Source: a virus | Strand: one strand, 5' to 3' | Virus genome (UHGV): UHGV-0134778 | Length of the DNA stretch: 64,000 bases | Shown here: positions 15,226 through 46,811 of the stretch, piece after piece | Numbering within the stretch: the stretch's first letter is position 1 | Layout of the letters: every line of letters starts with the position of its first letter | The notes under the pieces: generated by a model | Seen by the model: only the letters and a program-made list of their open reading frames with translations | The model's database searches: none | What the model was told of the DNA's origin: nothing | Translations under genes and position numbers: made by a program

Positions 15226-15350
15226 CACACAATTAGTTGCCCGGCTAAAGTGCTGGAAGCACCCATAACATCTTCCAACTAAATTTCCTACCAACACAGT
15301 TACTTACCCACCACACATGACTGTTTGCTTGTTTAGTGAGCAGTCATCCC

Positions 15351-15378
15351 TTGACATTCTTGCCTATCTTGATAAAAT
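15351..15378 (+). promoter_or_regulatory. sigma70-type promoter reading into non-coding DNA
   Basis: TTGACA (15351-15356), 16 nt, TAAAAT (15373-15378); no ORF with an RBS in the next ~300 nt. Confidence 0.45.
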
Positions 15379-16671
15379 TAAGTTCTTCTCTTTTCTTTTA
15401 CCGAGTAATTCGGGTTTTCTGTTCTCTTCGGTTTGAAGGGGTATGGAGATACACCTGAGTGAACAGGGTGAACAACCGAACCTTTAGCTATGGCATTAGC
15501 ATGGCGAAGCGGACGGGTGACGAAAGAGGGGCCGGAGGACACCAGTCACTGCCATATAGTATATGGGTGATAACCTGAAGAGTCTGAATAAGTGTTTAAG
15601 TACCAGTCAGAGGAAAAGGTGAATGGTAGCCGAAGGGGGAGGGGGGTTTCTTATATCTTTAATTTGTATACTTTATATACACTTGTAAACCAATTCAATT
15701 AGGATCTGTTTACCACACAAAGTGGATGGAGACAAATATCACCTATTAAACTTGAATTATTTATAGAAAATACCACAACACTACTTAAGTCTTTGATTTT
15801 ACACACAAATCCTACAGATACTCACCCTCCATATTTAACATACTTGTAACATATCCCATACTCTACCTGTCTGATCAATTTACCCAACTACATCCCCATA
15901 TTTTTCCTGTCTGTACTACCCCTGCCCCGCCGGGAGTCCCGTCATATCTGGCTTCCCAGCAAATATCACACCCACAAATATCATTGCCTGAAGAGGGTTT
16001 CATCCCATAATACACACCTTGCCTGAAGAGCGATTCATACACCAACTAAATTTTTTAATTGACCCCTCCCCGCCGCCGGAGAGGTTGGCTTTTCCCACAC
16101 AGGCCTGAAGAGTCAGCCAGAAATATCTGAACAGGCCCAGTTATACCACGATTTTGACATGACCGACAGGAGTGCTACCCTGTCAGGAGCCGGTAGCGAC
16201 TGGAGTGCTGCCAGGCGGACGAAATGGGAATACTTCTCATTCTTATAACAATTCTCAAATATCGAGGCAGTGAGGCAAATTAATAGGTGAGGCCGTTCAC
16301 ACAGTGGCACAACATTTGCAACCTATCTTGTGGGGTGAATGAGAATACCTATCATTGTGAGAATAGTTATCATTACGGGCAATTTAACATAATACCCATT
16401 ATGCGCACCACTGGCGATACATACAGGGATTGATAACATGGGTTACTGTTTACGCACATAACAATTATATTTCTTACTATTTGTGCGGGATATAGTTAGC
16501 AACCAATAGATTAGATATTGACCTGCGGACTTCTGACCGTCCAGACGTCTAAACGCCCACACAACAAGGGTTATACATACATTCCTGAATGTAAACAGGG
16601 CCGCAAAAATGCTACCATACCAGTTTGTAAATTTTTCATGCAGCACTTGACAAAGAGGAGAAAAACTTGTC

Positions 16672-16720
16672 TGACACTTTTGCCACTTTTGACACTTTTA
16701 CCTTTGACACAATATGACAC
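16672..16720. repeat. cluster of four TGACAC boxes
   Basis: TGACAC at 16672, 16690, 16705 and 16715, embedded in repeated CACTTTTGACAC words. Confidence 0.5.
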
Positions 16721-16750
16721 AATAACGGCTGTTACTATTCCATATCTCAC

Positions 16751-16805
16751 TGTTTACGCATAGACTGTTTACGCCTGAATAGTTTACGCCCAAACTGTTT
16801 ACACA
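16751..16805. repeat. four iteron-like direct repeats (C/A)TGTTTAC(G/A)C at 14-16 bp spacing
   Basis: TGTTTACGC at 16751 and 16767, AGTTTACGC at 16781, TGTTTACAC at 16797. Further copies of CTGTTTACG at 16446 and 17267, and inverted at about 16590. Confidence 0.6.
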
Positions 16806-16815
16806 GAGATGATGA

Positions 16816-17109
16816 GCCATGCCATTCGTTTGCATGAAAACAATTAACAAGATAACAATTAACAAGTTAATAATCTTTCGCTGGCTATGCCAGGTGACTA
16901 GGTCACCCCTTCGGGCGTTTATATGACATAATATAAAAGCAGGGCAACTATTAGAAGATCTATAGTTGCCTTGCTTGTTATGTCATGATTAACTAAATAC
17001 AAGGCAACTATGATCTGAGTAATAGATTGCAGAAAAACTATCACGGGGGTGATGGTTACTGCTTTTATATTATGTCGCGACTCCGTCGCGCCATGCCATT
17101 CGTTTGCAT
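16816..17109. repeat. 20-bp direct repeat pair flanking a nested inverted-repeat structure
   Basis: GCCATGCCATTCGTTTGCAT at 16816-16835 and 17090-17109. Inside: 18-bp perfect inverted repeat GACATAATATAAAAGCAG (16926-16943 / 17059-17076) and four copies of GGCAACTAT/ATAGTTGCC. Confidence 0.65.
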
Positions 17110-17722
17110 AGTTGCCTTATTGTTACAGGTAAAATAATTACATTATTAATTATTTCTTATCTTTCTCTTAGTCATCTAATGATTCCAGTCAGTATAGTAA
17201 TGTACAGTAAACATTAGACGACTAAAGATTTCTCTGTTTATGATAACTCATCGTGATAATTTCGGGCTGTTTACGAAAAATGTTGACACCTGAGCTGATT
17301 TATGTTATGCAGTCTACACGAATAATTATTTTATGCAGGTATTGACTATTCCGTTATTCTGTGGTTGGAATAAATACTTTGCAGGCTATAGAATGGCGTG
17401 CGTACGTGAATTCTGAGATCTGGCGGCTATAGTTATACTCGATTTTTCGCGTAGAACACGCTTTAGATGCTGTGTAAGTGTATGACTTATAAAGATTTTT
17501 AGTTGTTGACAAGATATTGGAGATGTGCATCAGGTTAAAATTTGTGCAATAGCGGCATTACGTGCACTTTTGGGAGAGAAAACGGGTAAAAATGGACTTG
17601 CTACCACACAATGAAAAATTATGCAATAGTTATTTTCCATGTATATTTGTACAGTATGTGGGATTGATGGCTAGTCAATTATTCCACTTGCCAGGTAGGG
17701 CCGTTTATGGTAGGAGAAGAGC

Positions 17723-17750
17723 AGACAAAAAGAAAGGGGCCTAAGCCCCT
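17723..17750 (-). terminator. intrinsic terminator closing the leftward gene block
   Basis: Minus strand AGGGGC-TTAG-GCCCCT followed by TTCTTTTTGTCT; lies 20 nt past the stop of 17770..18189. Confidence 0.7.
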
Positions 17751-17769
17751 TGATAATTCAGTTAAAAAA

Positions 17770-18189
17770 TTATAATGATTCGTATATTTCAAAAATCCGA
17801 TTTGCCAGGTCGTTACGGTAGCTGAATTTTTCCTCACGTTTGATCATAAGATCTTTATAGCCGTACTCTTTAAGCACTTCATTAACTTTATGGCGGCATA
17901 CTTTCATATTATCCTGCGCGTCACCAATAAATCTGTTGCTATGGTGCATGGCTTTAATTTCTTCTTCCAGGACCAGGGCAACTATGCGGACCGGATCAAG
18001 CTGATAGGCGGTAACATCCATGCGGCATTGTAAACGGCTTTTTACGTCTGCCACCGGATATACTGCAACCTCTTCCCCGTCAACATTGACAATAATTAGT
18101 TTACCATCGATTTCGAATCCTTTCGCCGCCGGACCGTGACAAAAAGCGTTATCAAAGCTATATGCCGGATTATTAGATTTAATGTTCAT
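17770..18189 (-). CDS. hypothetical protein
   Basis: 139 aa. First gene upstream of the minus-strand terminator at 17723-17750; promoter 18239-18267 and RBS AAGAGG upstream. Confidence 0.55.
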   Translation of the reverse strand: MNIKSNNPAYSFDNAFCHGPAAKGFEIDGKLIIVNVDGEEVAVYPVADVKSRLQCRMDVTAYQLDPVRIVALVLEEEIKAMHHSNRFIGDAQDNMKVCRHKVNEVLKEYGYKDLMIKREEKFSYRNDLANRIFEIYESL

Positions 18190-19013: not shown

Positions 19014-19044
19014 CGGTTTTTATAGTTCTTATATGACAGGCAGG

Positions 19045-19061
19045 CCCGGTGATTGTCTCCC
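19045..19061 (-). repeat. 17-nt motif GGGAGACAA(C/T)CACCGGG, copy a (minus orientation)
   Basis: Plus strand reads CCCGGTGATTGTCTCCC; downstream of the minus-strand promoter 19090-19118. Confidence 0.5.
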
Positions 19062-19089
19062 CCTGTTCCCAAGTGCCGCCCGTTTAATA

Positions 19090-19118
19090 AGAATAGCAAA
19101 AGGGGCCGAACAAGTCAA
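19090..19118 (-). promoter_or_regulatory. sigma70-type promoter followed by the 17-nt motif
   Basis: Minus strand TTGACT (19113-19118), 17 nt, TATTCT (19090-19095); motif copy at 19045-19061 lies 28 nt downstream of the -10. Confidence 0.45.
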
Positions 19119-19147
19119 CCCCAAAATCAGTACCAAAACACTTTTAT

Positions 19148-27350: not shown

Positions 27351-27548
27351 TTATTTTTTATTAAACCAGTGGTTGATCTGTCCTTTTGTCAGGGCGCAAC
27401 GATTAAGCTGTTGCCGGGTATAGCTCTGACCGCGACGGAATTTATAAAGGCCTTGCCCGTTGTTGATGGTTACGTCCACCTGGCAAATCATTTGATCGGT
27501 GACGGCCTGGCGAGTGTTGCGACGTACTTTAATTCCGTAGGCGTTCAT
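27351..27548 (-). CDS. hypothetical protein
   Basis: 65 aa; RBS AGAGAGGA. Confidence 0.45.
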   Translation of the reverse strand: MNAYGIKVRRNTRQAVTDQMICQVDVTINNGQGLYKFRRGQSYTRQQLNRCALTKGQINHWFNKK

Positions 27549-27966
27549 GATTTTTATCCTCTCTGTTAATTAGTGTGGTGTTGTTCACCTTGCGAGGATA
27601 AGAATAACAGAACTATCCGAGCTGTCAACCGTTAGTTAGAATTATTTTTTGGGCAGAATTCTCCAGCCGCCGCCACTGCCAGGTTAACCATCATTTTTTC
27701 GTACTCTTCTTTATGTTCCAACGCTCCCGCCATAGCCTTTTCAACCAGGGTGATAGCCTCAGCGTCATTAATCGCTACATTTCCAGGGGATCAAATTACC
27801 TTTCATTTTTGTACCTCCTCTTCAATTGTTACCTGCCCTGTAGCATAGGCCTACCAGGTTTGCAAGTTTTCACTCTCTCCTACCTGGTCAGTCAGGTCCT
27901 GCCAGGCTGGCCCCGCCAGGTTGCAGCGGTTGGTGCATTATGTTAGAAAAAATTTTTGAAGAAGTG

Positions 27967-27995
27967 TTGACAGCGGCCCCGCCAGGTGGCACAAT
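27967..27995 (+). promoter_or_regulatory. promoter-like element on the opposite strand to the flanking genes
   Basis: Perfect TTGACA (27967-27972), 17 nt, weak -10 CACAAT; followed ~35 nt later by the 17-nt motif at 28031-28047. Confidence 0.35.
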
Positions 27996-28030
27996 ATACC
28001 TATCGAAAGGACGGCAGGCACCGGTGACGG

Positions 28031-28047
28031 GGGAGACAACCACCGGG
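28031..28047 (+). repeat. 17-nt motif GGGAGACAA(C/T)CACCGGG, copy b
   Basis: Matches 28165-28181 and, in reverse complement, 19045-19061; each copy is 23-35 nt downstream of a promoter -10. Confidence 0.5.
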
Positions 28048-28110
28048 GATAGGCGCTGCATAAAATGAGAACGGTTATCATTATCATTTAAAAATTTATG
28101 CAAAAAATCC

Positions 28111-28141
28111 TTGCTTTCTTTGTCCTGTGTGATACTATAAT
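28111..28141 (+). promoter_or_regulatory. promoter-like element on the opposite strand to the flanking genes
   Basis: TTGCTT, then perfect TATAAT at 28136-28141 (19-nt spacer; alternative extended -10 TGATACTAT); followed 23 nt later by the 17-nt motif at 28165-28181. Confidence 0.35.
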
Positions 28142-28164
28142 AACAAGCCGGGGCAACAGGGGCC

Positions 28165-28181
28165 GGGAGACAATCACCGGG
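28165..28181 (+). repeat. 17-nt motif GGGAGACAA(C/T)CACCGGG, copy c
   Basis: GGGAGACAATCACCGGG; followed by GAGAATGATTATCATT, similar to the GAGAACGGTTATCATT after copy b. Confidence 0.5.
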
Positions 28182-28428
28182 GGTGCCCGTTATTCTGCAA
28201 ACGAGAATGATTATCATTCAAAATTCTAAATGAGAACTCCTCGCATTTAATAAATTTAATTAGCATGCTAATTACCCTCCGTAACAATTTCCTATAAAAC
28301 AATATCTCATAAAATATTCCCATATATAAATTTTAAAAATCCATTTCTGAAAACGAAAAATCGATTTCGTCCCCAAAAATTTTAGGTCGAGCGCCGGAAC
28401 GATTTCCAGAAAATCTGATTCAGAAAAC

Positions 28429-28511
28429 GAAAAACAGATCGAGTACTAAGAAATTTATCGAGAAAAATTTTCAGAAAATCAGGTATTTGAAATGAAAAAC
28501 AGATCGAGTAC
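28429..28511. repeat. tandem ~65-bp imperfect duplication containing an 18-bp perfect repeat
   Basis: GAAAAACAGATCGAGTAC at 28429-28446 and 28494-28511; units begin TTCCAGAAAATC (28404) and TTCAGAAAATC (28470); degenerate third copy near 28346. Confidence 0.55.
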
Positions 28512-28633
28512 CGAGAGAGATGTGCCGAAACTTTCTGATAGGTAATGGACTTATTGTTATAAAAGGTCAGAGGTAAGCTGGGAAAGTTCTGGTAGAAGGG
28601 TGAGAGTATGTGCGGAAAATCTGGAATAGTGAC

Positions 28634-28822
28634 TTAAAGTACGGTGCGAACGATAGAATGAGCAGCACAGCTTATCGTGCCTGTCTTGAAAAAATCCATT
28701 TTAGTTTTCGATCCATTTTCTGATTTTCTAAGAATTTTAAAATATCCGGCCAGGTGAAATATCAAAAGGAGGAAATCCATTTTAGAAATCCTCCTTATGT
28801 TTGATGTGCCAGGGATTTTCAA
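28634..28822 (-). CDS. questionable small ORF in a repeat-rich island
   Basis: 62-aa ORF with an internal AAGGAGG + ATG at 28779-28781 that would give a shorter product; overlaps direct repeats and a hairpin, so coding status is uncertain. Confidence 0.25.
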   Translation of the reverse strand: MKIPGTSNIRRISKMDFLLLIFHLAGYFKILRKSENGSKTKMDFFKTGTISCAAHSIVRTVL

Positions 28823-28825
28823 GTA

Positions 28826-29155
28826 TCAACTATCTTTGTTTTTAGGCTTGTACATGCGTAGAGGTATAGTCTTTGTAACATTCCATCTCCCCAACCCTTC
28901 CCAGTTCCAATTGTGAGCGTGATACCCGGTTATGCATGCACTGCTGGCGTGATCATAAGCATAAGAGAACGCTATGCGAACCAGGTGGGGCCAGTCTTTC
29001 CACGGCTGTGGCCCGTAAGCCTTTCTCCAACACCGACACAAACTAAATGTCTCAAGAATAGGCAGGATAACAAATCCATACACCACCACCAAGATGATCA
29101 GCGCAATGATTGTCAGGAATACATACCCTGCAGTTGAAATAATGATCTCTGTCAT
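28826..29155 (-). CDS. membrane protein
   Basis: N-terminal transmembrane segments (VFLTIIALIILVVVYGFVILPIL). Confidence 0.5.
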   Translation of the reverse strand: MTEIIISTAGYVFLTIIALIILVVVYGFVILPILETFSLCRCWRKAYGPQPWKDWPHLVRIAFSYAYDHASSACITGYHAHNWNWEGLGRWNVTKTIPLRMYKPKNKDS

Positions 29156-36783: not shown

Positions 36784-39561
36784 TTAGTGACAATCACCCC
36801 AGTTACGACCACACAAGTATTCACCTGTGATCTGGAACGGAACGCCCATCATTTTAGAAGCTTGCCAGAAGCAATGTACCACCATTTCGCCCACAGGGCT
36901 CCAGATAAGTTCAAGCTTTCCGTCATCGTTCAAGATAGGATCGTATACCGTATTTCCATCCCTGTCAACTACTTCGTTTCCTTCTTCATCCTTGCGTGCC
37001 TTTTTGTACTTATGACCGTCGAACACATGAAGTTTAGCCTCCTGCTGGGACTTAAATGTTTCCAGCTCTTCAATTGTGTCGAAGGTGTATACAGTTTTAT
37101 ACTTAGGTGTGTCAGGGACTTGAAGTTGATATTCGTCATGGTAATAAATAATACGACGAACACCCTCATCATACCATCCACGCTTCACCATCTGGTGGTG
37201 CATGAGTATCCCAACTAAGTCACACAATGATGCACCGCCATTTTGCTGATATGCATTAAGCAAAGAGTGTTTAGATCGGGTCCAAATGGCATGACCGTCA
37301 AAAGAGTAGATAAATTTCTTACCTGTTGCTTCCCAGAATTTCTCCAGATCCTCTTTACGACCCTTAAGACCTGGGTTGGCATCCCAGAGAGCGTCAATTA
37401 CTCTCTGTCCCAGTTCTGGAGAGATATCTAGCATATCTGCAACTTTATCTTTTTGTGCCCCGTACATAACCCCATACGTGACAGGCTTACCATCGTTACG
37501 AGACACCTCCCTGCCTGCTACTTTTGTATATGCCTCAGCATTGTTTTGGTGCGCATCTCCGTTACTTACAACATCATAATACAGACCGTTGTCAAACTCA
37601 AAGGCACCCCAGGCCCCGATGAGCTGCTCTAAGTTGGACCCGTCAATACCGATCTCAAAGTATCCTGGAGGAACACCCCACAGACTACGCATCTCTTTAC
37701 CCATAACCACTTTAGGAGATGGTTTAGGCATGTTTGCACAAATGCTGTGTTTCTGTCTGGAAGTGTTTGTTAATCCAGAACTTTTAGCAGGAAGCTTATG
37801 GTCAATCTTCAAACGTGGATGATTAAGAAGACCAGTATCAACCTTATCCTCCTTGATTGGATCAAGGACCGATCTACGGTTTCGCAAGGATAACCACAAG
37901 ACGATATCTTTAGCCATCTCTCCGTTCAACTTTTCAAGATTCGGACATAGGTGTCCAAACGTATCTTTCAGTTGCGGAGAAGTAATAAGCGCTCTGGCTT
38001 TTCTACGTATCTTCCCAAACACTTCCTTTTTAATCCTTTCTGAGTTAGGGAAGCTTCGGAACTTGTGCACGGTTGTCTGAAACTTAGCATCAGTTTTGTT
38101 CCAGAAGTTGATAATTAGGTCACAATACTCTGACTCTAAAAGCTCGTCCATATATGCATATACTCGTGCATCAACATCAGCATCAGGCAGAGCTTTCTTC
38201 TTGCTGTCCTTGGTTACATCTTTAGTTCTCCACATTGTTGGGAGCCAACCAGCGCTGATCAAATATCGCTTAATATCGTCCTGGTTGCTGATCTTCATAG
38301 GTATCTTGCAGTCAGGCATCCGCTTCTGCTGCAGATCACTTATTGCCTGATCCATTAGTTCTTTAGGTAAAGGATGTGGTGTAGAGGTTCCTTTGATATA
38401 CCCCCTCAAGAAATCAGCCATCTTATCTGGGTCTTTACAGCCCATCTCTTCACACCATTTTATCCCCATTTTGCTGACATCCCCTGTGGAGGTAAATGCT
38501 CGCTTAGGAGGAGCTTTGAACTCTAAAGCGCTCATGTCCACAGGATAGCCAAGCTTGTCTTTTAACCATTTCCAACCATTATTGGAGATTGTCCCATCCT
38601 GGTTAAACGGCTTTTCAGGGAACTTAGGCCGCTGAGACATTGATAACTCTTTTAAAGGAAGTTGTGGTTCAACACGATCAGCGATCTCCTTCATCCACGC
38701 ATCGCAGCGGTCACGTAAAGCAATAGCTCCATCTATGTCGAAATACACACCCTGTCGAGCCTGCAGCTCCATCAGGAAATGCTGCAGCATGCCTCGGCGT
38801 AATGCATTCTTCCAGGTAATCTTCTTGAATCCTTTAGGCTTCTCTTTGGCAGGGTCATACATAAAGTTCTGCATGTCAGATTTGCCGTAGAATACACCTT
38901 TTGATTCCGCTACCAACTCTTTCCAGAGCAACTCCTGGATGATAACGTCCTCGAACACACGATCCACATATTTCCACAGCGGAAGCTCACGCCAGTCATC
39001 GATTTGAACTTTCTGGTTACCAAGGGCATAGCCCCATGCCATAAGGCCATGAGGTCCAACAGGCTGCATTTTCTTGGTAACTGGATTGAATACTGCGTCC
39101 GGACAACCTTTTGGCAAAGGGCGGTCAGGCCACAAGATTCGACTCATCGCTAACGTATCAAACAGATTAACCTGGTGGTCGTTGATAGTTCCCATGCATT
39201 TAGGATCACGGAACATATCAAAATGAATACCGGATAATCTTTCCATCAGCATAAAGTCGTAACTGTAGCAGTTATGGCAGTTCAAAGCCGTAGGTGACCA
39301 GTCTGAATTGCCTGTAAGCCAGCCTTCCAACTCTGAAAAATCTGCTATGCGAGCCTCAAAATCTGTATAAAGGGTCTTCTTTGCCAGAATGAAGTTCTTA
39401 GCTTTCTCCACATCCTCTTCAGAGTAGTGTGTGCGGTCATTTAGAGGAAGGAACAGCATAAAACGGTTCTTATTCAGCTCTTTAAACAAACCGCAGTGAT
39501 AATAAAGATCTGGGTCTTCCAGCAAGCCAGAGGCCTCAAAATCGAACGACCACATGCTCAT
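36784..39561 (-). CDS. family A DNA polymerase with 3'-5' exonuclease domain
   Basis: N-terminal Exo I-like FDFEASGL, polymerase motif B-like DGKPVTYGVMYGAQ and motif C IIYYHDEYQ; 925 aa. Confidence 0.9.
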   Translation of the reverse strand: MSMWSFDFEASGLLEDPDLYYHCGLFKELNKNRFMLFLPLNDRTHYSEEDVEKAKNFILAKKTLYTDFEARIADFSELEGWLTGNSDWSPTALNCHNCYSYDFMLMERLSGIHFDMFRDPKCMGTINDHQVNLFDTLAMSRILWPDRPLPKGCPDAVFNPVTKKMQPVGPHGLMAWGYALGNQKVQIDDWRELPLWKYVDRVFEDVIIQELLWKELVAESKGVFYGKSDMQNFMYDPAKEKPKGFKKITWKNALRRGMLQHFLMELQARQGVYFDIDGAIALRDRCDAWMKEIADRVEPQLPLKELSMSQRPKFPEKPFNQDGTISNNGWKWLKDKLGYPVDMSALEFKAPPKRAFTSTGDVSKMGIKWCEEMGCKDPDKMADFLRGYIKGTSTPHPLPKELMDQAISDLQQKRMPDCKIPMKISNQDDIKRYLISAGWLPTMWRTKDVTKDSKKKALPDADVDARVYAYMDELLESEYCDLIINFWNKTDAKFQTTVHKFRSFPNSERIKKEVFGKIRRKARALITSPQLKDTFGHLCPNLEKLNGEMAKDIVLWLSLRNRRSVLDPIKEDKVDTGLLNHPRLKIDHKLPAKSSGLTNTSRQKHSICANMPKPSPKVVMGKEMRSLWGVPPGYFEIGIDGSNLEQLIGAWGAFEFDNGLYYDVVSNGDAHQNNAEAYTKVAGREVSRNDGKPVTYGVMYGAQKDKVADMLDISPELGQRVIDALWDANPGLKGRKEDLEKFWEATGKKFIYSFDGHAIWTRSKHSLLNAYQQNGGASLCDLVGILMHHQMVKRGWYDEGVRRIIYYHDEYQLQVPDTPKYKTVYTFDTIEELETFKSQQEAKLHVFDGHKYKKARKDEEGNEVVDRDGNTVYDPILNDDGKLELIWSPVGEMVVHCFWQASKMMGVPFQITGEYLCGRNWGDCH

Positions 39562-39619: not shown

Positions 39620-41698
39620 TTAAAAAGGTGTTTCGTCGTCTTCAAAACCGGGGACGTGGTTAGAGGACGGATCATCATACTGAGGATCTTCCTGTGTGTC
39701 AACTGGGGTAACAGTAGGAGTTACAACCTTATCAGCCACAACCTTGCCCACAGGTGTTTCCACAACTGCATGATCTTGATCCTCAAACATAGCCTGAGGT
39801 CTCCAAACAACCTCCCCACCTTCTCCGTCTGTAAACATTTGCATTTCTTTATCCCAGTACCAATTGCTGGCATCGTGGAACTTGCCTGTGTGAGGATCCA
39901 TAACTAAAGTGTCCGCAATACCTAGGGTTTTTGCTGGGCGGTTTTTAAGACTTACCAGTCGGACACGTCCACGGGAACGATCCACCATCTCTTCTGCTTC
40001 TACCCCAACAACTACCCAGCTGAGTTGCTCCAATCCGGCACTACCTCGAAGGTTCTCTTTTCGTACAGGGTACCAGAAAGGCAACGGATTCCCATCCTTA
40101 TCCTTAGGAGGTACAATCTCTGTACGTTTCAGGTGAGCAATCACCAGGATAAACACATTAAACTGCTTACAGAACGCGGCTAGTTGAGTCATAGCCATGT
40201 CAAGTTCTTTGCGCTCATCCTTAACATTAAGCCCTGAAATCACCATAGACAAGTGATCCAGCACAATGTAACGGCAGTGATACAGGCACACCATTTGTTT
40301 AAGCTTAGTGATCAGCTCATCCACAGGGATGGAGCCGAAATGCTTGAACACTTTGATTTTTCCGGTCTTGGCCCAAGATTGATGAATCTCAGCGTGCTCC
40401 TGGTCGGTCAGGAACTGACTGGGGTCTTCAACAAACTCTTTAACATCAAACCCCAGCTGGTTAGCGTACAGAGAGTTGATTGCTTCCTCAGGATCCTCTT
40501 CAAGGTGAATCAGACACAGGCGATCATCCTCTTCATAATCATCAGCTTTAGGGCATGTTGGATCCATCAAGTATCTTGCAATGCAGTGTTCCAGCTTCTT
40601 GGCTATAGTTGTTTTACCACCGCCAGATGGGCCTGTTAGCATCATCAAGGTGCCTTTGTGGAGCCCTTTCAGCATCTTCTGCAATTTAGGGAACTCCGCA
40701 CTGATATCCACGCCATTGGAAGTCTTCTTACGAAGAGATTCAATGGAGAAGTCTTCTAAATCAGATACAGCATCAGGCACATATTTGACTGGGTGACGGA
40801 ACATGTTGACAATATCTTCCAGCTTTTTAGCCTTCAGCATGTCACGAATATCTTTTACACCATCGGGATCGTTTACCTCTCCTGGGTATTCCACGTGGTA
40901 AACGTTGTCAGCCATTAAAAATGCTGCGATATTATGTGTGGCTTCAACACCTTTGATAACGTGTTTTTGCTTCTCTACCTCGTTAGCTGCATCGTTGTCC
41001 ATTGCAAGGACCACTGTTCCATAGCTACGGATAAATTTCTCATTGTTCGCAAAAGTGTCTACGGCGTTTGCACACCCGCAGTTAATTCCAACAAAAGGCA
41101 GGCAGGGTTTTCCTGCCAGGTCTCCGCCGTTGATAACTGCATCAATCCCATCTTGAACTTCTTTAGCCCACTGCTTCACCTTCGCTGGGGCTTTAGCATT
41201 GGTGAGAATGCCCTTCACTTGTATCTGATATGCAGCTTGCCATGCTGCAATAACATCACCCTCCCCCTCGCAGACGTTAATCTGTTTACGGTTGTTGGAG
41301 GATGCACACAGCTTTTGACCAAACATCTGAGAGTTGGCCTTTACTATGCCAACAACTGAGAAATGGCCTCTTTGCTCTTTAGGGATTGTCCAGTCACGCT
41401 TTTTAAAGCCGGATAGATTACCGTAGCGGTCGTAATATGGGAAATATGTTGCGGTGACCGTTACCCCGTCTTCCTGAGACAATGCTGATCGCACACCAAA
41501 ATATTGTGCAGCCATCAGTCCGATATTTTGTTGTGGAACAGGGACAATTTTAGTATTTTCTAAAACAGTCTCTACAGTTTCAACCTCTTTTTCATCACGA
41601 TAGTCTCGTTTCACACTTCCCCCACTTTTATACTTAGTTGCTTTCGGGTTTGGCTCACCGAAACGGTTGTATGCAGATGCCATGAATTTACTGCCCAT
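39620..41698 (-). CDS. bifunctional primase-helicase (T7 gp4-like) with acidic C-terminal tail
   Basis: Toprim-like VVLAMDNDAANE, Walker A LTGPSGGGKTT, DnaB-type helicase region; C-terminus ...GFEDDETPF. Confidence 0.85.
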   Translation of the reverse strand: MGSKFMASAYNRFGEPNPKATKYKSGGSVKRDYRDEKEVETVETVLENTKIVPVPQQNIGLMAAQYFGVRSALSQEDGVTVTATYFPYYDRYGNLSGFKKRDWTIPKEQRGHFSVVGIVKANSQMFGQKLCASSNNRKQINVCEGEGDVIAAWQAAYQIQVKGILTNAKAPAKVKQWAKEVQDGIDAVINGGDLAGKPCLPFVGINCGCANAVDTFANNEKFIRSYGTVVLAMDNDAANEVEKQKHVIKGVEATHNIAAFLMADNVYHVEYPGEVNDPDGVKDIRDMLKAKKLEDIVNMFRHPVKYVPDAVSDLEDFSIESLRKKTSNGVDISAEFPKLQKMLKGLHKGTLMMLTGPSGGGKTTIAKKLEHCIARYLMDPTCPKADDYEEDDRLCLIHLEEDPEEAINSLYANQLGFDVKEFVEDPSQFLTDQEHAEIHQSWAKTGKIKVFKHFGSIPVDELITKLKQMVCLYHCRYIVLDHLSMVISGLNVKDERKELDMAMTQLAAFCKQFNVFILVIAHLKRTEIVPPKDKDGNPLPFWYPVRKENLRGSAGLEQLSWVVVGVEAEEMVDRSRGRVRLVSLKNRPAKTLGIADTLVMDPHTGKFHDASNWYWDKEMQMFTDGEGGEVVWRPQAMFEDQDHAVVETPVGKVVADKVVTPTVTPVDTQEDPQYDDPSSNHVPGFEDDETPF

Positions 41699-45102: not shown

Positions 45103-45444
45103 CTACTCAAGGTCTTCAGAGTCAAGCTCAAAAAGAATCAAACTGTGCATGCCTGCAGAGAGATTAACACACCCTGCAACAATAAGGGTTTGATAGTAAG
45201 GTTCAGCACCCTCAATATCTTCGTTAAAATCCACAACAAGGTAGTCACCTTTGTTAAAGGTGTATTTGTCCGATGTAAACGCAAAACCTGCCCAGTCCCC
45301 TACTGCAGGATCTTTATCAGTCACCTTTGTTAGCAGTAGATCTTTTTCACGAGATCTTTTAGTAAAATCGTGAATCACAACATCCTTCTCTTCAGAAGTC
45401 GGATTGCCACACACGTAGTTAACGATATTTCTCCACAAACTCAT
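45103..45444 (-). CDS. hypothetical protein
   Basis: 113-aa ORF. Confidence 0.5.
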   Translation of the reverse strand: MSLWRNIVNYVCGNPTSEEKDVVIHDFTKRSREKDLLLTKVTDKDPAVGDWAGFAFTSDKYTFNKGDYLVVDFNEDIEGAEPYYQTLIVAGCVNLSAGMHSLILFELDSEDLE

Positions 45445-46811
45445 ACGTCCCCCTTTTCTGCTCTAGTTTCAAAATCTTTCCTGACTTTCTCGTCTAAGCC
45501 AGGGAAAGTTGTATTATAAAACTCTACGACTCTCGGGTCAACAATAATATCCACCTCTCTTAATGGACGCAACAAGTTTATTCCTTGTATCGTCTTAACC
45601 CGACTCAAGGCAACATACGTCATTCCGGGAGAGAAAGCTCCGTTCTTTCCGAGGTCTAGGTTGTAACAATCTAACGTAAGTCCTTGACTTTTATGCGATG
45701 TTACTGCGTACCCAGATTTCAAAGGAAGTTGCTCATAAGACCCGATCACAACCCTCTCTATGAACTTCTCCATCTTCCTTTCGGCAATATTGTACCTCTG
45801 GGAAGGTTTGTACTCGTTATTCTCCCACAATCTTGGCTCAATTTCAACCTGTGTTCCGTCTTCTAGCTCAACTACTACGGATTTGGTCTTGAATTTTACC
45901 ACTGTGGCACGTGTCCCGTTAACATAATACGGAACTTTGTGAGTAGGGTCAACATCGTTTGAGGTTATCATAACCTTCATCCCTATCTTCAGCCTCATTT
46001 CCTGCTCCACAGGTAGTGTGGAAGGGAACTTACCTTTCATTTTACCAATGTAGGTCTTCTCTGGGGCCTTGATGGCATCATAGAAACGTCTGTTCACCTC
46101 CTCTGCTTGCTTATTGGTGGCACAGATGGTCAAGGCATCTGTTGGGACACCACCATGATAGCAACGAGTGTTAAGCTCTGCTACAACCTCTTTTATGCGA
46201 CGACCTTCACGAACACAGTTCAACATTGTGGCGAAGCGAACAGATTCCTGACGGAACTGGTCTACTAAGGCTATGTTGTGAAGATTAAGATCCTCCCAAG
46301 ATTCTGTATAGCAACACAGGTCTGTGTGGTAGAAGTTGAAGTAGGCTTCTTTCTCCATAGAAGAGACAACTGGAGGTGCTTGGTAGAAATCTCCAAACAA
46401 TAACACCTGAATGCCTCCGAAAGGTTTGTCATTTTTCCGAAGAAAGCGGAGTTTTCTATCCATCTCTATGAACTTGTCAGCACGGATCATAGAGATTTCA
46501 TCGATAATCAGGATGGTAAATGCCTTGCTTTTCAGAGGCTTTGCTGTTTTTGCCCTTATTGCTGTCCAGTCTGACTCCATGCTCACACCTGCGGCAAGAT
46601 CGAAAGTTCGGTGCGCTGTTGCTCCATTAACGTTTAAAGCGGCTACCCCTGTCGGGGCAACCGTTATGCAAGAGTCTCCATACATGGACTGGATCATGTT
46701 GATAAGATATGTCTTCCCGGTTCCACCAGGTCCACTTACGAAGACATTCTCACCGCTCATGATTGCAACAAGGGCAGCATCTGTGCCTACATCGTACTGC
46801 CCTTTTTCCAT
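45441..46811 (-). CDS. Dda/RecD/Pif1-like superfamily 1 DNA helicase
   Basis: Walker A VSGPGGTGKTY, Walker B ILIIDEISM and C-terminal SF1 helicase motifs; 456 aa, similar in size to T4 Dda. Confidence 0.8.
   Translation of the reverse strand: MEKGQYDVGTDAALVAIMSGENVFVSGPGGTGKTYLINMIQSMYGDSCITVAPTGVAALNVNGATAHRTFDLAAGVSMESDWTAIRAKTAKPLKSKAFTILIIDEISMIRADKFIEMDRKLRFLRKNDKPFGGIQVLLFGDFYQAPPVVSSMEKEAYFNFYHTDLCCYTESWEDLNLHNIALVDQFRQESVRFATMLNCVREGRRIKEVVAELNTRCYHGGVPTDALTICATNKQAEEVNRRFYDAIKAPEKTYIGKMKGKFPSTLPVEQEMRLKIGMKVMITSNDVDPTHKVPYYVNGTRATVVKFKTKSVVVELEDGTQVEIEPRLWENNEYKPSQRYNIAERKMEKFIERVVIGSYEQLPLKSGYAVTSHKSQGLTLDCYNLDLGKNGAFSPGMTYVALSRVKTIQGINLLRPLREVDIIVDPRVVEFYNTTFPGLDEKVRKDFETRAEKGDV

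Follow-up and report, generated by a model that had tools for sequence, protein, structure and literature searches.

What does a virulent phage do with a long stretch of DNA that carries no convincing gene? The question is raised by the gene-free island at 27549-28825 of the virus genome UHGV-0134778, which we analyzed as a single stretch of 64,000 nucleotides (nt), here called the window. The island extends from the start of one leftward gene (27351-27548) to the stop of another (28826-29155), and the 1.5 kb around it are 90–96% identical to more than 100 genomes of Vequintavirus (rV5-like coliphages), the genus to which the window belongs, with phage ECP32 as the top match. An initial annotation, made from the letters alone, had placed in this island two rightward promoters, copies of a 17-nt motif that recurs a third time elsewhere, repeats, and a hairpin, and all of these are present. 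Our best explanation, held tentatively and with somewhat less than even confidence, is that the island acts as a conserved non-coding control region—i.e. an early small-RNA or leader unit whose read-through into AT-rich repeats is gated by the host iron regulator Fur. At the level of sequence, we establish a family of elements, its linkage to promoters, its restriction to phages, its conservation, and the identity of the Fur boxes that follow it.

The 17-mer occurs exactly three times in the window (28031-28047 and 28165-28181 on the + strand, 19045-19061 on the - strand), compared with 0.01 copies expected by chance, and the copies lie 35, 23, and 28 nt, respectively, past a -10 hexamer. The proposed trio of promoter-linked motifs is thus borne out, as are the two promoter-like elements that oppose the flanking genes. 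The first of these (P1, 27967-27995, + strand) reads TTGACA-17-CACAAT with an upstream TG and a GC-rich spacer (GGCCCCGCCAGGT), and fits 10 of 12 consensus positions. The second (P2, 28111-28141, + strand), identified by direct reading, joins TTGCTT (28111-28116) to a perfect TATAAT (28136-28141) across 19 nt; it is missing from our promoter scan because the scan covers spacers of 16–18 nt, and its homologues in relatives have spacers of 16–17 nt. Our conservation profile is based on seven Vequintavirus genomes that are 83–98% identical overall. Across these, P1 is 97% and P2 97–98% conserved, while the whole segment with both promoters, elements, and boxes (27940-28260) is 93–99% conserved, which equals or exceeds the flanking genes. 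The GC-rich spacer GGCCCCGCCAGGT is found three times upstream of and within P1 (27895-27991), and the island promoters of phages phiTE and Seu621 share a GC-rich spacer (CCCGGCGGGCCTGGG). Such shared spacers may represent a regulator site, or the remnant of a small + strand gene that is present there in relatives.

The 17-mer is the core of a longer consensus, consisting of a G-rich 5' arm, GGAGACAAnCACC, five variable bases, and TGCCYGYYAT(TC). The copy after P2 (U2, 28142-28196, + strand) comprises the G-rich 5' arm, GGGAGACAATCACCGGG (28165-28181), and GGTGCCCGTTATTCT, and matches a covariance model of the element with 58.2 bits (E = 1e-13). The copy after P1 (U1, 28002-28060, + strand, core at 28031-28047) is divergent; its counterparts in relatives are weak matches to the model (17.5 bits), and its predicted fold of -18.3 kcal/mol has a z-score of -0.57. 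The third copy (U3, 19014-19125, - strand, around the 17-mer at 19045-19061) scores 26.6 bits and stands in the order promoter (TTGACT-17-TATTCT, 9 of 12 positions), element, second promoter (TTGACA-17-TAACAT), and leftward genes from 18930. The conserved core is not coding, as copies differ in the frame that runs across it. A small-peptide reading of metagenomic copies of the element was likewise rejected, its frame not being constant between copies.

Sensitive blastn searches find the U2 element with its box at 80–90% identity in very divergent phages, namely in five further rV5-like genera in all: Phapecoctavirus (phAPEC8), Mydovirus (Seu621 and KpS8), Certrevirus (phiTE, CB7, and POP18), Seunavirus (GE_vB_MG and EspYZU08), and that of Erwinia phage Hena1. 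In the annotated records of Phapecoctavirus, Mydovirus, and Certrevirus, the element always sits in a gene-free island (~0.6–1.3 kb) within a leftward gene block. All relatives that we read share one order, with one or more promoters followed by the element, 2–4 Fur boxes, AT-rich repeats of ~60–75 bp, and AAATATC-type motifs. Relatives also have a second copy of the U3 type elsewhere in the genome, again with a Fur box after it.

Beyond these phages, a strict consensus pattern recovers 14 loci in IMG/VR, on contigs of 15–153 kb (mostly 137–153 kb, the rV5-like range), with no chance matches among them. In metagenomes, the pattern yields 90 loci; roughly half of them trace to a chance match in a single bacterial gene, and the others (~40) are genuine. 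Only 10 matches were obtained from 100,044 bacterial and archaeal species genomes, all of them by chance in coding sequence, and blastn of the element against 5,426 Escherichia coli genomes found no match. Looser viral scans, with 14–16 specified bases, were dominated by chance matches. The covariance model detects 2–4 copies of the element per contig, and the new metagenomic instances belong to phages unrelated to rV5, in which the element follows perfect TTGACA-17-TATAAT promoters and has no Fur box.

Linkage to promoters holds across this larger set. Specifically, 46 of 62 distinct covariance-model matches have, no more than 62 nt upstream, a sigma-70 promoter that fits at least 9 of 12 positions, compared with 5.5% of random positions, and for ten of the 62 the promoter is perfect (12/12). 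For most rV5-like copies, 8 nt separate the end of the -10 hexamer from the start of the model, and therefore the element begins at the 5' end of the transcript in these copies. Sought in related phages, the 17-mer is therefore present and its placement is non-random—i.e. on the transcribed strand just past a sigma-70-type promoter—and this extends to unrelated phages. A literature search on the motif strings returned nothing relevant.

Some metagenomic contigs carry the element as self-contained, terminator-closed units of roughly 100 nt, with four such units in 6 kb of contig L310. In L310, L312, and L345, an intrinsic bidirectional terminator lies 20–40 nt past the element and only opposite-strand phage genes lie beyond it. 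An own promoter plus an intrinsic terminator within ~150 nt is seen in these three contigs, whereas the first + strand terminator of the window is found only at 28766-28796. At least one unit of L310 (1163-1259) and the promoter of the neighboring gene are arranged back to back. Another variant was observed in L298 (1242-1340), a 214-kb contig, where the reverse complement of the element core (cggtgattgtctcccc) comes ~60 nt after the core itself; the two would form a long inverted repeat.

Other genera have a different element of ~75 nt in the U1 slot (L002 2394-2470, L003 2328-2400, L244 11836-11910, L245, L246, and L025). This "RNA A" is promoter-driven and nearly invariant (ACGCCACCCCACGGCGAAAAGGCGGGGCUAAC...GGAAGGUG.AUCGCCGG); RNAalifold gives it -23 kcal/mol with 22 pairs, 1–2 of them compensatory, and Rfam has no match to it at E ≤ 10.

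We then find that the block following each island element is, by sequence, a canonical host Fur box, and a predicted operator. The block GAGAATGATTATCATT lies within a 19-bp near-palindrome (AATGAGAATGATTATCATT) whose core is one position off the 7-1-7 consensus TGATAATnATTATCA. Box 2 (28197-28221, core CGAGAATGATTATCA at 28202-28216) has one mismatch to the 7-1-7 pattern, and direct reading of 28203-28221 fits the 19-bp Fur palindrome GATAATGATAATCATTATC at 14 of 19 positions. Scored with an independent matrix built from 22 Acinetobacter baumannii sites (PMC3055841), with true sites at 19.5–31.8 bits and a best score of 19.6 in 50 shuffles, box 2 reaches 24.0 bits and is the top match in the whole window. 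Box 1 (28061-28085, core TGAGAACGGTTATCA at 28066-28080) is a Fur-like site with two mismatches and 15.8 bits. A third, degenerate box (28228-28249, AAATGAGAACTCCTCGCATTTA) has no matrix score in the window; its equivalent is better kept in phAPEC8 and phiTE. Over the whole window, the 7-1-7 pattern matches 38 times, compared with 15 expected.

The same strings are known from iron regulation in bacteria. For example, TGAGAATGATTCTCA is the Fur box of the Enterococcus iron-transporter operon EF3082-3085, which is upregulated 12–18 fold in a delta-fur strain (PMC6056675), and closely similar Fur sites are listed for A. baumannii (PMC3055841). Judged by title and abstract, six of the eight papers that contain the Fur-box strings appear to concern iron regulation, iron uptake, or siderophores. 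The initial annotation had treated motif and block as parts of one leader element. The conservation of the block stands, but by its sequence the block would be a separate Fur operator; similarly, of the "shared leader-RNA element or operator" proposed for the 17-mer, the operator idea applies to the block and not to the 17-mer.

Of the 62 elements, 36 have a Fur-like site scoring 12 bits or more after them, compared with 2.3% of controls. Nearly every rV5-like copy is among the 36, but not the window's own U3 copy or its closest relatives; of the non-rV5 metagenomic copies, only two reach this score, and one of the two (L337) shows box-like repeats by eye. Relative to the P2 start, box centers are found at about +61 and +91, and box 1 at about -74. 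The Fur boxes are ordinary as sequences and unusual in their place—i.e. past start sites, in a virulent phage, and in non-coding islands. A leftward Fur-controlled promoter overlapping the box was considered and rejected, as its hexamers are not conserved.

The exact 16-mer of the Fur box is also found in at least 120 viral contigs of IMG/VR, compared with 68 for the reversed sequence. These contigs include L009, L016, L034, L100, L101, and L118, and tandem arrays are frequent among them. The flanks were compared over 108 distinct contexts in phages with no relation to rV5: position -1 is T in 95%, -2 is A in 73%, and -3 is A in 66%. Because these conserved flanks lie outside the searched string, the full 19-bp site is under selection, and Fur sites may be a widespread feature of phages.

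How these parts might work together can be stated as follows. Host RNA polymerase would initiate rightward at P1 and P2, and the first 50–60 nt of each transcript would be the element (G-rich arm, GGAGACAAnCACC, five variable bases, and UGCCYGYYAU), acting as RNA in the form of an imperfect hairpin at the 5' end of an abundant early transcript. Iron-bound Fur at about +55 to +95 would stop or thin elongation and leave a short hairpin RNA. Under low iron, or when replicating phage DNA titrates Fur, the protein would come off and transcription would continue across the AT-rich repeats up to the bidirectional terminator at 28766-28796. In rV5-like phages, a Fur operator, as judged by its sequence, occupies the place where other phages have an intrinsic terminator. 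Transcription, the RNA fold, Fur binding with its roadblock, and any target are what we infer here from the sequence features.

The most economical reading is that the RNA itself is the product, since in some phages the units are self-contained and terminator-ended, with no co-oriented gene beyond. The suggestion of antisense or small RNAs in the initial annotation therefore survives in its second half; an antisense role toward the flanking genes is unsupported because a bidirectional terminator closes the island and no extended complementarity was found elsewhere in the window. A search for antisense targets in the window found only chance 9–11-mers, and this candidate was rejected. A wider claim would be that many phages make abundant small RNAs of this type early in infection, as a family not yet catalogued, from consensus promoters directed against the neighboring genes, and that in enterobacterial rV5-like phages Fur serves as a conditional stop, such that host iron status switches between a short RNA and a long read-through into a candidate origin region. 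In this full form, we consider the claim rather unlikely.

Does the element fold as RNA? Minimum-free-energy folds recurrently give one long irregular hairpin, with the 5' end paired to ...YGYYAU and with GAGACAAnCA within or close to the apical loop. In a MAFFT alignment of 19 island-type copies, the specified structure is 73% paired, compared with 69% in shuffles (0/500) and 32–55% in slid controls, and covariation is 0.194 vs 0.136 in shuffles; one pair (6-52) covaries clearly, with AU in 8 copies, GC in 7, and GU in 2. In a model-fitted alignment of 59 distinct sequences, the structure is 72% paired vs 66% in shuffles and 34–54% in slid controls, with covariation of 0.207 vs 0.128. An RNA hairpin is plausible but unproven, and weakly supported by these values.

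Scans against known RNA families separate the element from what is catalogued. Rfam 15 gives no match at gathering thresholds in the window or in L002-L004, and permissive searches return nothing relevant at E ≤ 10 (27600-28900 of the window and L244 11780-12120) or at E ≤ 1 (ten metagenomic loci). The element is a family not catalogued in Rfam, and one found only in phages. Riboswitches (ZTP and guanidine) and a signal-recognition-particle RNA had been suspected by eye, and were rejected when the Rfam scans gave no relevant match. An interpretation of the G-runs of U2 as a G-quadruplex or R-loop was also rejected, as direct reading shows that relatives lack four G-tracts.

Several observations weigh against the scheme of a hairpin RNA gated by Fur. 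For the fold, the 59-sequence alignment was itself fitted to the model structure, RNAalifold finds no consensus structure in either alignment, and single-sequence folds are not unusually stable (z-scores of -0.6 to -2.7, and one of +1.8). The inner helix (helix 2) is only 62–66% paired, and the 65 G.U pairs are matched by 58 A.C mismatches; because G.U is no commoner than A.C, the pairing signal does not pick out the transcribed strand. For Fur, box 1 scores below the published range of true sites and box 3 is degenerate, and the boxes lie downstream of start sites and not over a -35 or -10 hexamer, which is unlike classical repression geometry. In addition, P2 of the window phage has a 19-nt spacer, and our search of the literature turned up no transcript data for any phage of the rV5-like group.

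The alternative that fares best looks beyond the boxes to the DNA into which P1 and P2 point. A perfect 18-bp palindrome (TAATTAGCATGCTAATTA, 28257-28274, direct reading) lies just past the boxes and may be a protein-binding site. It is followed by an AT-rich repeat region (28336-28516) with three copies of a 47–55-nt unit containing GAAAACGAAAAAyCGAT, and its first repeats lie in a segment (28320-28460) that is 93–98% conserved. The tandem ~65-bp duplication of the initial annotation is upheld in its 18-bp perfect repeat (GAAAAACAGATCGAGTAC, 28429-28446 and 28494-28511) and 65-nt spacing, whereas the copies themselves are 55 nt long and 76% identical, and a third copy of 47 nt is 72% identical; Tandem Repeats Finder does not call the array. 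The repeated words are confirmed, with AAAAATCCATTT present three times. Farther right, a block with ATCCATTTT words and a pair of AAATATC motifs (28690-28763, pair at 28740-28746 and 28757-28763) is 93–99% conserved, as is 28680-28800 as a whole, and AAATATC pairs are also present in relatives. Conservation falls to 69–88% at 27720-27900 and 28480-28680.

This layout would suit a transcription-activated replication origin, or another cis site acting at the level of DNA, in which P1 and P2 send transcripts into the AT-rich region that prime or open it, and the 17-mer element is merely the start of the activating or priming transcript. We regard this as unlikely, with some evidence in its favor. 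Conservation of the order of promoters, Fur boxes, and AT-rich repeats reaches further than that of the 17-mer: Aeromonas phage 2L372D has no match to the covariance model of the element, yet its boxes and repeats are arranged as in rV5-like islands, and a related 3' segment (CCTGCCTGAC) lies ahead of its Fur boxes. The repeat-bearing stretch 28261-28530 has a GC content of 32.6%, analogous repeats are present in other genera, and genes for a family A DNA polymerase (36784-39561), a DnaB-like helicase (39620-41698), and a PIF1 helicase (45441-46811) lie in the same leftward block, 8–20 kb upstream. The rV5 paper failed to locate the origin (PMC3606486), and our literature search on replication origins of rV5-like phages returned nothing relevant. 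By contrast, DnaA and IHF consensus sites were looked for in the island and none was found, no initiator gene is adjacent, and metagenomic contigs carry the element alone with its terminator and without the repeat region. A repeat-rich non-coding region at 15230-17770 is at least an equally good candidate. Enrichment of GATC sites in the island was also rejected, with 3.1 sites/kb compared with 5.3/kb in the whole window.

Another possibility is that the nascent element binds its own polymerase and makes it resist pausing and termination, as a cis-acting modifier similar to the put RNA of phage HK022. The conserved element of ~55–70 nt is placed at the transcript start, behind host-type early promoters and in several copies per genome, which matches the position of putL (PMC9378689); U3 and the U3-type copies of relatives head leftward transcription units, and terminators follow the element in some phages. 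In L310, L312, L345, and the island itself, however, nothing co-oriented lies past the terminator. The predicted fold is a single irregular hairpin and not two stem-loops, structural support is weak, and the likeness to put is positional, such that we consider this explanation quite improbable.

We are equally doubtful that the 17-mer region works as a DNA operator, with a protein on GAGACAAnCACC-N5-TGCCYGYYAT (about +25 to +55) blocking the strongest early promoters, or as a sigma-70 trap formed by GAGACA-18-TATTCT. Conservation covers the two blocks and their fixed 5-nt spacing, whereas the regions that should pair vary, and the wobble pairs without strand asymmetry and the lack of an RNAalifold structure are consistent with a site read as DNA. 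By direct reading, the trap sequence also bears a loose resemblance to promoters of the phage itself. The motif has no palindromic symmetry, though, its distance to the promoter ranges from 23 to 40 nt, and guarding the promoter of a mere ~100-nt RNA still requires that RNA to matter. The -10-like hexamer of the trap varies (TATTCC, TCATTC, and CATATA), and for lack of conservation we rejected the idea that GAGACA-18-TATTCT makes the element promoter-like.

The Fur boxes could also serve as decoys, titrating Fur as phage DNA replicates and thereby de-repressing host iron uptake, with no regulation of the island. In the classical Fur titration assay, Fur boxes present in multiple copies relieve repression of the Fur regulon. 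The island holds at least three boxes, four more Fur-like boxes are found at 16225-16372, relatives carry 2–4 boxes in a row, and many unrelated viral contigs contain the 19-bp site in arrays. Nevertheless, the boxes are tightly linked to element and promoters rather than scattered, only one box in the window has a strong-site score, and by our own estimate the sites per burst are modest relative to Fur abundance. Titration as the sole function thus has a low probability, although it is compatible with any of the preceding readings.

Translation of the Ile-rich micro-open reading frames as attenuating leader peptides has next to no chance of being correct: both 8-codon ATG frames exist where the initial annotation had seen them (MRTVIIII at 28065-28091 in box 1, and MIIIQNSK at 28207-28233 in box 2), but they lie inside Fur-box sequence that dictates their codons (ATG AGA A.. 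ATC ATT) and are therefore artefacts of that sequence read in frame, they have no Shine-Dalgarno site, and they are not conserved, since ACG stands ahead of box 2 where relatives have ATG.

The surroundings of the island comprise a long leftward gene block that contains the replication genes and a DNA methylase gene; the genes directly flanking the island belong to PHROGs of unknown function, and no tRNA or tmRNA was detected. The long hairpin noted at 28766-28796 is confirmed as a bidirectional terminator (AAGGAGGA...TCCTCCTT, -17 kcal/mol, z-scores of -2.75 on the + strand and -3.7 on the - strand). It is predicted to end the leftward gene 28826-29155 and would stop rightward island transcripts too. 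At the other side, a sigma-70-type promoter on the - strand (27601-27628, TTGACA-16-TATTCT, 10 of 12 positions) is predicted to restart transcription of the leftward genes. P1 and this promoter of gene 27351-27548 are divergent and have similar A/T-rich upstream and -35 regions, which form an inverted repeat (I1, 27621-27648 vs 27947-27974).

The description of the island as ~1.3 kb without a convincing gene holds for 27549-28825 with one reservation on the left. A frameshifted copy of a 57-amino-acid hypothetical open reading frame annotated in ECP32 lies at 27632-27805 (- strand), with one extra G relative to ECP32 and conservation of only 0.78–0.92; it is a pseudogene, or else reflects a sequencing error. 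This leaves ~1.0 kb as the part that is firmly free of genes. Separately, GenBank records MG065646-MG065690, labeled "Campylobacter phage" with Campylobacter jejuni as host, are ~90% identical to this E. coli Vequintavirus over the island, and are probably contaminants or mislabeled isolates.

A second and larger gene-free region (15230-17770) is located where the rightward and leftward gene blocks join. It contains CCTGAAGAG four times, four CTGTTTACGC-like units in tandem (16745-16800), and a 20-mer (GCCATGCCATTCGTTTGCAT) that occurs twice (~16818 and ~17095) around long inverted repeats, in addition to AAATATC pairs (15960-15990) and the four Fur-like boxes at 16225-16372. This region may correspond to the box called "non-coding" in the rV5 paper, and makes a candidate for a replication origin or for packaging.

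The rV5-like phages (Vequintavirinae and Stephanstirmvirinae) are broad-host-range candidates for therapy, and the island offers several handles on their regulation. The promoter-linked, phage-only element can be tested as a new class of RNA; the Fur operators, identified by their sequence in a virulent phage, would link host iron physiology to the phage programme, or titrate Fur; and the region is a candidate origin. The 19-bp Fur site in many unrelated viral contigs, often in arrays, may indicate that phages exploit the host iron regulator quite generally. The interest of the locus comes from this breadth and testability, and is tempered by the weak structural evidence.

Among known systems, the putL and putR sites of HK022 are alike in being a conserved element of ~70 nt directly past host-type early promoters, in more than one copy per genome, and in that the element would act without an obvious dedicated gene beside it. 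They differ in structure, with two stem-loops and a triplex in put compared with the single irregular hairpin predicted here, and in setting, as put stands ahead of long operons while several of the present units have no co-oriented downstream genes (U3 does). The likeness is positional and we claim no homology. The operators of RyhB, PrrF, and the aerobactin promoter share the same site (TGAkAATnATTmTCA, a 19-bp palindrome) beside a short non-coding unit. The Fur box of RyhB and PrrF overlaps the promoter, however, whereas here it lies ~55–95 nt past the start site, in a unit of a virulent phage that has no sequence similarity to RyhB. The primary origin of T7 (promoters 1.1A and 1.1B) and oriF and oriG of T4 also have tandem promoters that lead into an AT-rich, repeat-bearing, gene-free stretch near replication genes; the promoters of the island are of the host sigma-70 type, and its Fur boxes and 5' element have no counterpart there.

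Within the rV5-like phages themselves, the pseudo-ToxI locus of phiTE is likewise a repeat-bearing intergenic locus for a non-coding RNA; its expression in the course of infection was deduced from nuclease-protection assays with a ToxI-carrying escape phage. That it could be the same island was considered and rejected: it lies at 106.7 kb beside tRNA and terminase genes and has 36-nt ToxI-like repeats, and the phiTE equivalent of the island (L025) is elsewhere in that genome. The island repeats (47–65 nt) also do not, by eye, resemble the ToxI repeat. A small non-coding early transcription unit would be of a known kind, and what appears new, judging from sequence, is its coupling to the operator of a host metalloregulator and the uncatalogued family to which its element belongs.

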